IMG/VR virus record: IMGVR_UViG_2778261643_000010
DNA: 24,518 bases
Source of the DNA: a virus
Lineage: Duplodnaviria > Heunggongvirae > Uroviricota > Caudoviricetes
Strand: one strand, 5' to 3'
In this document: in pieces, positions 10,591-24,518 of the stretch
Position numbering within the stretch: position 1 is the stretch's first letter
Layout of the letters: each line of letters begins with the position of its first letter
The notes under the pieces: generated by a model
The model's input: the letters and a program-made list of their open reading frames with translations, nothing else
The model's database searches: none
Told to the model about the DNA's origin: nothing
Program-made: the position numbers and the translations under genes

Positions 10591-13500
10591 CTATATTTTT
10601 CCGCCTACGCCTTTAAACTTCTCAATAAACGAGACGATTTTCTGGAAAACTGCCTGTTTTTTCGTTTTATATTGCGGATTCAACGGACTAAGTTTTGGTA
10701 ATGTTTCGTTTAATTCTGTGCCATTTTCGGTGGCGTATTCGCGTTTTAAAGACGTGCGAATATAGCGTTTTGCTGCTTCTTCATTGAGGTTTTCTTCTTT
10801 TATCAATGCTTCTGCTTCACGTTGCTGTTCGCGTTGAGCAAACGTAAAGAATGCCTCAATGATACTGGCTTTGTCTGGTAAATCATCCAGGTTCGTTTGC
10901 TGAATAAAATCGACCACCAGGCCCTCTTTCGCCCGGTTTCCCAGGCTTGAACGAATTAAGCGTTTGACCTCTTCGATCATTTCGCCCTTGCCTTTATTTT
11001 GTCTGTTGTGTTCGAAAATCAGTCCAAGGATATAATCCAGGTTTATTTCCTGAGACTTCAGCAAATCGACCTCAAAAACTACATCATCCCAGTCAGTGGT
11101 TGATTTCTCTTTTTTCTCAGCTTCTTTCTCACGGCGCTGCCAGTCGCGAATATCGTTATAGGCAGAACGATAATCCTGAATCTTGCGATCAGCAGGGAGA
11201 CGAATTGTTTGCAATTCAGCGAACTTTTCATCATCCACATAATGTTCTGCTTTGAATTTTTCTACCGCAACAGGATCGCTAAGATCGATTTGTTGCAGGG
11301 CTTTTAGCGTGGCAAATTCATCATAGTTTTGCAGGATGTTCTCGGCACGCAGGTATTCGCCAAACAGTTTAACGAAGTCTTTCTTCTCTTTTTCACTTTC
11401 AATACTGGTAGGGTCAGGGAACCGTTGTTCCAGTTCTGAAACTACTGTCATGAAGCCGCGTTTAGCTTCACCAGTGGCAGCATCAGTAAAGCCTTCCATA
11501 TACTCTGCATAACTCTTTTCTAAAACCACATTTTTGGTATTTTTGTCACCAAACAGCGTTATGGCATCAATGGTTGAGCGTTCCAGATCCCGGAACGTGA
11601 CGATATTACCGAAGGTTTTAGTCGCGTCATAAATGCGGTTGGTGCGGGAGAATGCCTGCATCAGGCCGTGAAAACGCAAGTTTTTATCGACGAATAGCGT
11701 GTTCAATGTTGGAGCGTCGAAGCCGGTTAAAAACATCCCAACGACAATTAACAGATCGATATCCTGATTTTTAACCCGTTGGGCTAAATCACGATAGTAG
11801 TTCTGAAAACCGTTACTGTCGGTACTGAAGTTAGTTTTAAAATAGCTGTTATATTCACGAATTGCAGCGTCGAGAAACTCTTTAGCACTGCTGTCCATTG
11901 CGCTGGTATCAAAAGTTTCATCGGAAATTTCACCAATGGCATTTTGTTCTTCATTAGCGGCAAAGGAGAAGATTGTCGCAACACGTAGTGGTTTATAGGT
12001 AGCAGATTTATAAGCGGCTTCCTCTTGTAACCGTTTAAACGTCGCGTAATAGGCTTTCGCGGCATCCACGCTGCTCACTGCCAGCATGGCATTAAAACCT
12101 TTGGAGCCAGGGAAAGTACGGTGGGTTTTCTGGCGGAAGTTATTCAGGATATATTGCGTAATTTCCTGAATACGCATGGGATGAAGGAACGCCTGCTGAT
12201 TTTCAGCCGCACTCAGTTTTTTCTCGTCAGTTTCTGTCTCTAAAGACTTAAACTGTGGCCGCACATCGTTGTAGTCCACCTTGAATTTAAGCACTTTTTC
12301 ATCACGAATCGCATCGGTAATAACATATGAATGCAATTCACGGCCAAATACGCTGGCGGTCGTTTCTGAGCCTAAGGCGTTTTCCGGGAAAATAGGTGTG
12401 CCGGTAAAACCAAACTGATAATAGCGTTTGAATTTCTTCTTCAGGTTTTTCTGTGCTTCTCCAAACTGGCTGCGGTGACATTCATCAAATATAAACACCA
12501 CTTGCTGATTGTATACAGGCAGGTCGCTTTCTGCTTTCATCAGGTTATTAAGTTTCTGAATAGTGGTGACGATAATTTTGTTATCGTCCTTATCCAGATT
12601 TCGTTTAAGACCTGCGGTATTTTCCGAGCCGTTGACGCTGTCTGGCGAAAAACGCTGATATTCCTTCATGGTCTGGTAATCGAGGTCTTTCCTGTCGACC
12701 ACAAAGAAAACTTTATCAATAAAGTCCAGTTCTGTTGCCAGACGCGCGGCTTTAAAGCTGGTCAGGGTTTTACCGGAACCCGTGGTGTGCCAGATATACC
12801 CACCGCTTTCCGGTTTTGACCAGTTCTTCGCTGTAAAGGAGCTCTTAATTTTCCACAGAATGCGCTCGGTGGCGGCAATCTGGTACGGTCGCATCACCAG
12901 TAGCGTCTGACTACTGTCAAAAACGCTGTAGTTCACCAGAACATTCAGCAGAGTATGTTTCTGGAAAAAGGTAGCGGTAAAATCTTTGAGGTCTTTAATC
13001 AGCGTGTTGTCTGATTTCGCCCAGTTCATGGTGAAGTCAAAACTATTTTTATCGCGCTTTGTGGTGTTGGCAAAGTAACGGGTATCGGTGCCGTTAGAAA
13101 TGACAAACAGTTGCAGATACTTAAACAGGGAATTTTCGCTGTTAAAACTCTCTTTACTGTAACGATGTATCTGGTTGAAAGCCTCACGAATCGCCACGCC
13201 GCGCTTTTTCAGTTCGATTTGCACCAGAGGCAAGCCATTAACCAGGATAGTTACGTCATAACGGTTAGCGTGAGAACCTGCCTGTTCAAACTGCTGGATA
13301 ATCTGCACTTTGTTGCGCATGAGATTCTTTTTATCTATCAGATAGATGTTCTCAAGACGCCCGTCGTCAAAAATAAAGTCGCAAATATAGTCGATATGGA
13401 TTTTACGGGTCTTATCCAGAATGCCATCGCTCGGGTTGTCCAGATACTGCTCCGTGAAACGCCGCCACTCGCTGTCATTAAACACCACACCATTGAGGCT

Positions 13501-13707
13501 CTGAAGCTGTTCCCGAACATTGGACAGCATAGCCGACTGAGATTTTACGGATATAAATTCATAGCCCTGATTCCGCAGGTCCTGAATCAGTTCACGTTCC
13601 AGGTCCGATTCGCTCTGGTAGCTGTCGCCTGTTGGCTCAGCTTTGATGTACTTATCAAGGACGATAAAGTTATTGGATTCAGCAATAGTGTGTGTCTGAT
13701 GAGTCAT
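10591..13707 (-). CDS. hsdR: Type I restriction enzyme R subunit (HsdR), EcoR124-family (Type IC)
   Basis: Walker A motif [11 protein letters not shown] and DEAD-like [10 protein letters not shown] are present. The ORF track begins at 13767, but ATG 13707 ([11 protein letters not shown]) has an AAGGA ribosome-binding site and gives about 1038 aa, the length I recall for EcoR124I HsdR. Confidence 0.9.
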
Positions 13708-13828
13708 AGCGCATCCTTTGTGCCGTCTGGCAAGGGCCGGAAGGGAGTTAAGGGTGACTTCCGGCACGTAAAAAATAGTCTATATACAGACCGGATGTTA
13801 AGGTGGTCCGGTCGGTAGCAATGGTCAA

Positions 13829-19617: not shown

Positions 19618-19839
19618 ATGCAATCCATTAACTTCCGTACCGCGCGCGGCAACCTTTCTGAAGTGCTCAACAATGTTGAAGCCGGGGAAGAGGTTGAAAT
19701 CACCCGCAGAGGCCGTGAGCCAGCAGTAATTGTCAGCAAGGCTACTTTTGAAGCCTACAAAAAAGCGGCGCTGGATGCTGAATTTGCATCCCTGTTTGAC
19801 ACCCTGGACTCCACCAACAAGGAACTGGTTAACCGATAA
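19618..19839 (+). CDS. phd: Phd antitoxin (prevent-host-death), 73 aa
   Basis: [41 protein letters not shown] is the Phd/YefM fold and appears near-identical to P1 Phd from memory. TAATG overlap with doc. Confidence 0.9.
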
Positions 19840-20219
19840 TGAGGCATATATCACCGGAAGAACTTATTGCGCTTCATGATGCGAATATAAACCGCTACGG
19901 CGGCTTGCCGGGAATGTCAGATCCGGGTAGGGCAGAGGCCATTATCGGGAGAGTTCAGGCCAGAGTTGCCTACGAAGAGATCACCGACCTTTTCGAAGTC
20001 TCCGCCACCTACCTGGTGGCTACAGCGAGAGGGCATATATTCAATGATGCCAATAAGCGTACCGCGCTAAACAGTGCGCTGTTATTTCTACGCCGTAACG
20101 GGGTGCAGGTATTTGATTCACCTGAACTGGCAGACCTTACCGTAGGGGCTGCGACCGGAGAGATATCTGTATCTTCTGTCGCCGACACGTTACGTAGATT
20201 GTATGGTTCCGCGGAGTAG
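19839..20219 (+). CDS. doc: Doc toxin (Fic-fold kinase), 126 aa
   Basis: Contains the Fic-type motif [11 protein letters not shown]. Same size and position as P1 Doc. Confidence 0.9.
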
Positions 20220-21562: not shown

Positions 21563-22015
21563 ATGTTACTTAACTGGCAGGGACGCCACTTCATGGAAAT
21601 AAATCACTCACGAATAACATCGTACGAGATTGCGGATTACATGATCCGCACTAAATCTCTTCTATCAGCGAAAGAACTCGCAGCAATTCTTGAAAAGGAA
21701 TACCCGCATCTGGATGTCGATAAGCGCGATGTTTATCTGCGCTTAAAGGCTATCGCTGTGTCTAAGTATTCGTCTGTTTTGATTGATGACAGTACACGCC
21801 CACGTAGATTTCAGATCCACTCTCTGAATCCTGAATTCTTTCGCCGTAGCCGCGCTCCGCGCCGGTTTGATGAAAAACTCCAGAACGAACTCTATATGAC
21901 GCAGGACGAAAAGGAACGCCGGGAGCACCAGCCTTGGGTAATGGCGCGTCAACTTTTCAATAAGGTGGCCCGTCAGCACCGTCATTACGGTAATGCCACA
22001 TCCGCACGTATCTGA
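21563..22015 (+). CDS. lpa: Putative late promoter activator (assigned by synteny only); start may be ATG at 21593
   Basis: A 150-aa ORF between the doc-distal genes and pacA, which is where P1 carries lpa as I recall. No motif-level support. Confidence 0.45.
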   Translation: MLLNWQGRHFMEINHSRITSYEIADYMIRTKSLLSAKELAAILEKEYPHLDVDKRDVYLRLKAIAVSKYSSVLIDDSTRPRRFQIHSLNPEFFRRSRAPRRFDEKLQNELYMTQDEKERREHQPWVMARQLFNKVARQHRHYGNATSARI

Positions 22016-22100: not shown

Positions 22101-23294
22101 GTGACCTGGGACGATCACAAAAAGAATTTTGCTCGCCTGGCGCGAGATGGTGGTTACACCATCGCACAGTATGCCGCCGAGTTTAATCTTAACCCTAATA
22201 CCGCACGTCGTTATCTCCGTGCCTTCAAAGAAGACACCAGGACTGCGGACAGCCGCAAGCCAAATAAGCCAGTCAGGAAGCCACTAAAAAGCATGATCAT
22301 TGATCACTCTAATGATCAACATGCAGGTGATCATATTGCGGCTGAAATAGCGGAAAAACAGAGAGTTAATGCCGTTGTCAGTGCCGCAGTCGAGAATGCG
22401 AAGCGCCAAAATAAGCGCATAAATGATCGTTCAGATGATCATGACGTGATCACCCGCGCCCGCCGGACCTTACGTGATCGCCTGGAACGCGACACCCTGG
22501 ATGATGATGGTGAACGCTTTGAATTCGAAGCTGGCGATTACCTGATAGATAACGTTGAAGCGCGGAAGGCCGCGCGCGCTATGTTGCGTCGGTCCGGGGC
22601 TGATGTTCTGGAAACCACTCTTCTGGAAAAGTCTCTCTCTCATCTCCTTATGCTGGAGAACGCCAGGGATACGTGTATTCGCCTGGTGCAGGAAATTCGC
22701 GATCAGCAAAAAGACGATGATGAAGGAACTCCGCCTGAATACCGTATCGCGAGCATGCTAAACAGCTGTTCCGCGCAGATAAGCAGTCTGATCAACACCA
22801 TTTACAGCATCCGGAATAACTATCGAAAAGAAAGCCGGGAGGCGGAAAAGCACGCTTTATCTATGGGGCAAGCTGGCATTGTTAAGCTGGCATACGAACG
22901 AAAGCGTGAAAATAACTGGTCAGTGCTGGAAGCAGCTGAATTCATCGAGGCGCATGGCGGGAAAGTGCCGCCCCTGATGCTGGAGCAAATCAAAGCCGAT
23001 CTGCGTGCTCCTAAGACCAATACCGATGATGAGGAAAGGCAAACAGCCGTCGGTGGCCCTTCTCTTGAAGATCTGGACAAAGTTGCGCGAGAACGGGCCG
23101 CCAACCGCCGCGCCGATGCCGCATTGTGGATTGAGCAGCGTAGGGAAGAAATCGCCGATATCGTTGATACAGGCGGTTATGGAGATGTTGATACTGAAGG
23201 TGTATCAAACGACCCATGGCTGGAACAAGACCTGGACGAAGACGAGGAGGAAGACGAAGAAGTTACCCGCAAGCTATACGGGGATGATGATTAA
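22101..23294 (+). CDS. pacA: Terminase small subunit / pac-recognition protein PacA
   Basis: GTG start with AGGAAG ribosome-binding site. The N-terminus [38 protein letters not shown] matches what I recall of P1 PacA. The pac hexamer cluster lies inside the gene. Confidence 0.85.
22294..22452 (+). promoter_or_regulatory. pac packaging site: four TGATCA hexamers (22294, 22301, 22313, 22328) and three TGATCA/G (22424, 22436, 22447) flanking the presumed cleavage region
   Basis: Direct reading gives seven Dam GATC sites in a 4+3 arrangement, the architecture described for P1 pac. Confidence 0.8.
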
Positions 23295-24493
23295 TGGCCA
23301 GAAGTTGCGTAACGGATCCACGTTGGCGCGAGCTGGTGGCGCTATATCGTTATGACTGGATTGCTGCCGCTGATGTTTTGTTCGGCAAAACACCTACCTG
23401 GCAGCAGGATCTGATTATTGAGTCTGTGCAGGAACAGGGTAGCAAGACATCTGTTTCGTCTGGTCACGGTACCGGGAAATCAGACATGACTTCTATCATG
23501 ATCATGTTGTTCATAATCATGTATCCCGGTGCCCGCGCCATTATCGTTGCGAACAAAATTCAGCAGGTAATGACCGGTATATTCAAGTACATCAAGATAA
23601 ACTGGGCTACTGCCACCAGCCGTTTTCCATGGCTTGCTGATTATTTTGTTCTGACAGAAACCGCTTTCTATGAGGTTACTGGTAAAGGTGTATGGACTGT
23701 AGTACCGAAGGGCTTTCGTCTGGGAAGTGAAGAAGCTCTCGCCGGTGAACACGCAGATCATCTTCTGTATATTATCGATGAAGCCTCCGGTGTCAGTGAT
23801 AGAGCTTTCGGTATCATCACCGGTGCTCTTACCGGACAGGATAACCGCATCTTATTACTGTCACAGCCTACACGCCCAAGCGGCTATTTCTACGATACTC
23901 ACCATAAACTGGCCAAGCGTCCTGGTAACCCAGATGGCGTTTATACGGCGATCACGCTTAACAGTGAGGAATCACCGCTGGTAACGCCAGAATTTATCAA
24001 AATGAAGCTGGCGGAGTACGGCGGGCGTGATAACCCTATGTACATGATTAAGGTGCGTGGCCTATTCCCTAAATCACAGGACGGCTTCCTTCTTGGACGT
24101 GATGAGGTTGAACGTGCAACGCGGCGGAAAGTTAAGATTGCCAAAGGATGGGGCTGGCTTGCATGTGTGGACGTTGCTGGTGGTACGGGACGGGATAAGT
24201 CAGTTATCAATATCATGATGGTGTCCGGCCAGCGAAATAAACGCCGTGTAATCAACTATCGAATGCTGGAATACACAGACGTTACAGAAACGCAGCTTGC
24301 CGCCAAAATTTTCGCAGAATGTAATCCTGAGCGATTCCCAAATATCACCATAGCGATAGACGGCGATGGCCTGGGTAAAGCAACGGCGGATCTGATGTAC
24401 GAGTATTATGGTATTACCGTACAGCGTATACGCTGGGGTAAAAAGATGCATAGCCCTGATGAATCCCCTAATGATTTTTATCAAAATCATTAA
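23294..24493 (+). pseudogene. pacB: Terminase large subunit PacB, truncated by IS10; native sequence ends at 24455 and the last 12 codons plus stop are IS-derived
   Basis: Walker A GHGTGKS and Walker [10 protein letters not shown] are present. The coding sequence runs into CTGATGAATCCCC at 24456. TAATG overlap with pacA. Confidence 0.8.
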
Positions 24494-24518
24494 GTTAAGG
24501 TAGATACACATCTTGTCA
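24456..24518 (+). mobile_element. IS10 outside-end fragment; terminus at 24456, element body extends rightward out of the window
   Basis: Begins CTGATGAATCCCCTAATGATTTTTATCAAAATCATTAAGTTAAGGTAGATACACATCTTGTCA, which is the IS10 outside end as I recall it. Confidence 0.8.

Follow-up and report, generated by a model that had tools for sequence, protein, structure and literature searches.

Locus and Genetic Context

The stretch of DNA analysed here (hereafter, the window, with a full length of 24,518 bp) is the entire draft contig NLWS01000025.1 of assembly GCA_002513315.1. Its genes follow the P1 order of the Punavirus type, i.e., genes 5-6-24-7-25-26 ... hsdRMS ... humD-phd-doc-pdcA/B-lpa-pacA-pacB and, to judge from its sequence, the element is a P1-like phage-plasmid (plasmid prophage) of the SJ46/RCS47 type. 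At both contig ends, outside ends of IS10 are found as inverted copies that face inward onto a P1 segment of 24.4 kb (Table 1), and the right end of the contig lies 63 bp inside IS10. The insertion sequence IS10/ISVsa5 belongs to the IS4 family, is the insertion sequence of Tn10 and, when complete, measures 1329 bp. A search of the literature under the assembly accession GCA_002513315.1 returned nothing.

Table 1. Features of the window, in order of position.
Feature	Position	Strand	Description
IS10 outside end, inverted orientation	1..59	-	59/59 identical to the right-hand end and also to the DH5alpha IS10
Truncated gene 5 (baseplate hub) ORF	12..368	-	118 aa: 103 of 210 native codons plus 15 codons read from IS10
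9-mer TACATAGCC adjoining the left IS10 end	60..68		NGCTNAGCN at 4/6; full fit to NRCNNNGYN
hsdR (type I restriction)	10591-13767	-	Uninterrupted ORF, 1058 aa
phd-doc addiction module	19618..20219	+	Intact
lpa (late promoter activator)	21563..22015	+	Intact, 150 aa; Pfam BPP1_LPA match
pacA (pac-recognition terminase subunit)	22101..23294	+	Intact, 397 aa; phrog_1711 terminase, E 2e-204
pac site, inside pacA	22294..22452		4 TGATCA hexamers, central cleavage/IHF region, 3 TGATCR hexamers
Truncated pacB (large terminase) ORF	23294..24493	+	399 aa: 387 native codons plus 12 codons read from IS10, stop
9-mer TGCATAGCC adjoining the right IS10 end, presumed target site	24447..24455		NGCTNAGCN at 5/6; full fit to NRCNNNGYN
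IS10/ISVsa5 outside end, first 63 bp	24456..24518	+	63/63 identical to the DH5alpha copy (L003)

The closest record is plasmid NZ_CP122822.1 from E. coli ETEC1731, with which positions 60-24455 of the window are colinear at 99.98% identity. Leaving aside an IS1203 present in that plasmid, there are approximately five mismatches in 24.4 kb and, in consequence, the match in pacB is not a chance resemblance. Both pacB and gene 5 are intact in NZ_CP122822.1. As for hsdR, the copy of the relative is split by IS1203 at a point corresponding to about 12882-12890 of the window, where the gene is whole. Neither the replicon nor c1 is present in the 24.4-kb contig, and tRNA and Rfam scans of the window gave no matches. 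The intact phd-doc module speaks for the element being kept as a plasmid, a point which is given here as context only.

Upstream of pacB, the packaging region is well preserved, as the first-pass annotation of this DNA had proposed for pacA and pac. PacA is identical to that of NZ_CP122822.1, and all seven TGATCR (Dam) hexamers of pac are kept, in two clusters that start at (i) 22294, 22301, 22313 and 22328 (to 22333); and (ii) 22424, 22436 and 22447 (to 22452). The pac region is identical to the annotated P1 pac region at 208 of 211 positions, one of the three differences being located inside the annotated IHF site.

The Junction Between pacB and IS10

At the DNA level, the pacB of the window is 98-99% identical to those of SJ46, RCS47 and phiW39, and 79% identical to those of P1 and P7, and the homology of these matches always ends at about 24455-24462. 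Over residues 1-387, the encoded protein shows 100% identity to the terminase of NZ_CP122822.1, from which it then diverges, and 86% identity to P1 PacB; both reference proteins are 494 aa long. Codon 388 begins at 24455, which is also the last native base; the window then continues, at 24456, with CTGATGAATCCCCTAATGATTTTTATCAAAATC..., a base-for-base match to the outside end of the IS10/ISVsa5 of E. coli DH5alpha, which contributes 12 codons and a stop to the pacB ORF. The composition first proposed for this ORF, some 387 native codons and then 12 from IS10, was thus correct. In the native arrangement, AAGATGCATAGCC is followed by GTGAAGATAAG; in the window, it is followed by CTGATGAATCCCCTAATGATTTTTATCAAAATC. 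The sequences GTGAAGATAAG and TGCATAGCCGTGAAGATAAG belong to the native 3' end of pacB, leading to c1, and the uninterrupted sequences are AAGATGCATAGCCGTGAAGATAAG (intact junction) and CAGGCGGTACATAGCCTTCACC.

The first-pass annotation described pacB as interrupted by IS10. This description stands as far as the gene runs into an IS10 end once 387 of its 494 codons are complete; the other side of the presumed interruption falls outside the contig, which breaks in a repeat (IS10), so that only one side can be observed. Seen from this side, the junction may correspond to a simple insertion, or to a deletion or rearrangement beyond the insertion sequence.

By the established organisation of IS10, the transposase gene of the right-hand copy would be codirectional with pacA-pacB; late-operon transcription would enter the insertion sequence, and its outward promoter would be directed antisense into pacB. 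As a separate observation, residues ~258-387 of PacB are near-identical to those of P1 (L015; three differences), as opposed to about 50 differing positions in the ATPase half. This mosaic pattern of sequence conservation suggests recombination inside pacB between P1 lineages.

What the Truncated PacB Keeps and What It Loses

Full-length PacB homologues are ~494-505 aa long (those listed, among 739 homologues), rather than about 390 aa or less, and the alignment to P1 PacB places 107 C-terminal residues in the missing part. The terminase ATPase motifs that had been noticed in the ORF are indeed there: both Walker A (G57-H-G-T-G-K62-S63) and Walker B (D162-E163) occupy invariant columns in a family alignment of 39 sequences. 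Since no Pfam family was matched at E <= 0.01 by either the truncated or the intact PacB, PHROGs, PDB and a fold search were used in place. The match to phrog_2 ('terminase large subunit') covers residues 33-372 in the window ORF versus 33-474 in the intact PacB.

For the fold search, an AF2 model of the full-length homologue P0002 (89% identical; pLDDT 87.7) was compared using Foldseek, which retrieved Sf6 gp2 (E 1e-21), followed by T4 gp17, D6E and HK97 TerL. The two-domain TerL fold was found for this homologue model, to which the isolated Sf6 nuclease domain aligns over ~240 columns. On the basis of this model, the nuclease domain of PacB would comprise roughly residues 255-494. Furthermore, residues 424-468 align without gaps to Sf6 gp2 in HMMER searches (E 0.15 with a single sequence; E 0.004 with the family profile) and, once the 20 tag residues that shift the numbering of the crystallised chain are allowed for, PacB K444, D457 and D460 align with Sf6 K428, N441 and D444, respectively. 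In the PacB family, conservation at the three columns is 90% or higher. In Sf6 gp2, D444 belongs to the metal-binding triad D244/D296/D444, and N441 serves as a ligand of the metal, whose binding is controlled by K428 (PMC4678813).

K444, D457 and D460 are all among the 107 residues missing from the window ORF, whose native part ends at 387; its C-terminal nuclease domain, of the RNase-H-like type, is incomplete, and so is the acidic triad. The C-terminal tail of other terminases contacts the portal. It had been claimed that PacB lacked its nuclease portion, which proved to be an overstatement: according to the model-based boundaries, about 45% of the ~240-residue nuclease domain would be lost and about 55% retained. 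The invariant residues D293 and D356 are kept; given their invariance and their position at the ends of the predicted strands 287-293 and 352-356, they are probably the first two catalytic acids. The part of the claim that holds is that the counterparts of Sf6 K428, N441 and D444 lie in the missing segment.

A CRISPRi screen of genome-wide scope scored P1 pacB as essential, at an efficiency of plating (EOP) below 1.2e-7, and amber mutants of the gene have been recorded (PMC10695390). From the comparison of sequences we infer, on good grounds, that the truncated PacB would have lost pac cleavage and packaging.

A Second Junction in Gene 5

The left end of the contig, to which the first-pass annotation of pacB did not refer, presents an analogous situation. 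There, the first 103 aa of gp5 are 100% identical to P1 gp5 (the intact gene in L001 encodes 210 aa), and the product of the truncated gene retains matches to Phage_base_V and phrog_430. The native distal part of gene 5 corresponds to CAGGCGGTACATAGCC, next to which dbn and ban are located. P1 gene 5 likewise scored as essential (EOP below 2.1e-6; PMC10695390) and, since a second IS10 junction lies in it, the prophage is defective twice.

Both IS10 ends can be compared with the target preferences of the element, for which a classical consensus, NGCTNAGCN, and a relaxed one, NRCNNNGYN, have been quoted (PMC4574204). The two adjoining 9-mers, TGCATAGCC and TACATAGCC, are native sequences that occupy identical places in the intact relative NZ_CP122822.1, and both fit the profile obtained from 27 distinct IS10 flanks collected for comparison. 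Their fit to the target consensus speaks in favour of IS10 insertion at both sites.

On the other hand, TACATAGCC and TGCATAGCC are identical at eight of nine positions and constitute direct repeats on the + strand. Under a naive model, the chance of such similarity between flanks is 0.2-0.4%. Empirically, five of the 351 pairs formed by the 27 distinct flanks (~1%) are equally similar; one of these five pairs joins a window flank to the flank of L004, which was found by its likeness to that window flank, and without that pair the value is ~1.2%. At an empirical frequency of ~1%, the likeness can be regarded as a mild coincidence that leaves room for two independent insertions.

Neither window junction is present in PLSDB, complete E. 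coli genomes or IMG/VR, which indicates strain-specific events. Two candidate matches were rejected: (i) the flank similarity in the DH5alpha match is a chance gapped extension; and (ii) that in the ATCC 43896 plasmid corresponds to a separate IS10 beside TGCATTGCC. In neither case is it the same junction. Predicted ORFs spanning the IS10 inside end and gene 5 were absent from the searched collection. An 81-aa gene 5 remnant, considered as a trace of the source assembly, belongs instead to frameshifted alleles in other plasmids. The ORF of the pacB 3' remnant (MHSRED..., 110 aa) does exist in the collection, where it is indexed in 573 blocks, mostly from an unrelated deletion lineage (see below); the contigs read for this ORF did not include the sample of the window.

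Origin and Fate of the Element

Taken together, these observations are, with good confidence, best explained by an IS10 at each end of the P1 segment of a P1-like plasmid prophage, the result of two insertions that disabled both PacB and gp5. In the simplest history, a prophage that was intact until very recently would have received IS10 twice, in independent events: one copy of active type (ISVsa5) would have become joined to pacB after codon 387, and another to gene 5 after codon 103. The truncated PacB would retain its ATPase domain and, of the RNase-H-like nuclease domain, the first beta-strands (with D293 and D356), and the lost tail would carry the counterparts of the metal-site lysine, the metal ligand and the third triad acid of Sf6 gp2. 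In consequence, pac cutting and head filling should fail despite an intact PacA, Lpa and pac site, and the loss of gp5 would pose a separate block to tail assembly. Since P1 pacB and gene 5 are both reported to be essential, the element is very probably unable to make phage particles. We infer that it could nevertheless persist as a plasmid, provided that its replicon, on other contigs, is intact.

Four other readings deserve attention. According to the first of them, which is unlikely and had been named as an alternative in the first-pass annotation (a captured fragment), the 24.4 kb are not part of a complete plasmid but an IS10-bracketed fragment that now resides in another replicon. Such a fragment could have arisen by two routes: (i) a single Tn10-like composite insertion in gene 5, followed by the loss of ~70 kb via a 7-bp microhomology (CATAGCC) with pacB; or (ii) mobilisation of the segment as a composite transposon by the inside ends of IS10. 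The inward-facing outside ends at both contig ends agree with this reading, as do the lack of a replicon and c1 in the window and the direct 8/9 repeats formed by TACATAGCC and TGCATAGCC, which have the geometry of one composite-element insertion and a low naive probability; besides, the hybrid TG+CATAGCC is the remnant expected from a microhomology deletion. Nevertheless, both 9-mers are native at their exact places in the intact relative, equally similar pairs do occur in the 27-flank sample, and a spontaneous deletion would, a priori, rarely have its endpoint in precisely the 9 bp beside an IS end. Moreover, the near-identity to a complete plasmid suggests recent events.

The second reading, much less probable, holds that the pacB insertion is carried by part of the culture only, or that a coexisting P1-like element has an intact pacB, so that packaging is kept at the strain level. 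Contigs from short reads, such as this one, end at repeats, and minor alleles may go unseen in them. Against this, the same contig is recorded for three samples, and a contig that ends in IS10 on both sides needs no assembler artefact. Regarding a second element, P1-type plasmids that share the replicon and partition system are normally incompatible.

Slightly more improbable still is the idea that the 24.4-kb block, with its pac, pacA, lpa, phd-doc and type I restriction-modification genes, is a mobile composite element which departed from a P1 plasmid and is packageable with a helper. Its rationale is that pac and PacA are kept and a working PacB is lost, so that, upon superinfection, a P1-like helper could initiate headful packaging on the block. 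If this were true, it would imply satellite-like mobilisation or lateral transduction of the DNA adjoining the block.

Finally, that the ATPase and the partial nuclease domain are enough for packaging is scarcely credible: the truncated PacB does retain 387 of 494 residues, both Walker motifs and the invariant D293 and D356, but about 45% of the nuclease domain is in the missing segment, which carries the sole sequence-detectable similarity to solved terminase nucleases and covers active-site residues, and full-length members of the family reach ~494-505 aa.

Two insertions into a plasmid prophage remain the preferred explanation. From a practical point of view, this prophage should be marked as defective and left out of any count of P1-like phages that can be induced or that transduce. 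A gene that appears 'interrupted' at the edge of a window may reflect the break of a draft contig in a repeat, and both contig ends need to be read jointly. The case is one further example of IS10 eroding P1-like plasmid prophages, and its meaning lies mostly in annotation.

Comparison With Known Systems

Both the gene and the type of element are known, and a knock-out by IS10 is an ordinary event in such elements. With regard to the insertion sequence, the terminal 59-63 bp are identical to IS10/ISVsa5 and the adjacent 9-mers fit its target consensus; in contrast to the complete element, the window holds the ends only, without the transposase gene, the inside ends or the second 9-bp target copies. 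The abundance of IS10 ends is considerable in some E. coli genomes, with up to 42 per genome.

With P1 PacB (pacase B; NC_005856 P1_gp110) and the SJ46/RCS47-type allele, the window protein shares the gene, the lpa-pacA-pacB position and the ATPase motifs; but, unlike P1 PacB, it stops at residue 387 of 494, ends in a 12-residue tail encoded by IS10, and lacks K444, D457, D460 and the C-terminal tail.

Two complete P1-like IncY plasmids carry IS10 in the same packaging/immunity region, at sites other than those of the window. In p2017-03-3CC_3 (NZ_AP027786.1), a complete IS10 is located in pacA inside the pac site (L020 22495-23840), between the 4-hexamer and the 3-hexamer clusters, with a perfect 9-bp duplication, CGCTAAGCG. 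In p1_025943 (NZ_CP027199.1), it is the icd/ant region, which separates pacB from c1, that carries IS10 (L021 4630-6000).

There is also a widespread P1-like lineage in which lpa, pacA and most of pacB (to ~codon 375) are deleted (L005 3940-4010 of CP080596.1 and ~20 similar loci, L006-L014). In this lineage, a TTAC microhomology joins the beginning of lpa (ATGTTAC) to pacB, of which the 110-aa C-terminal ORF is left. A relationship of this deletion with IS10 was ruled out, because its TTAC-microhomology breakpoint lies 35 bp upstream of the IS10 site and carries no insertion sequence. In contrast to it, the window keeps lpa, pacA and pac. P1-like plasmids such as pJIE250-3 and pSvP1 have lost lytic functions, and IS-mediated losses of this kind have been published (PMC6906374). 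Like these plasmids and the deletion lineage, the element described here would be a plasmid prophage kept after the loss of morphogenesis or packaging genes, a loss which often takes place via insertion sequences.
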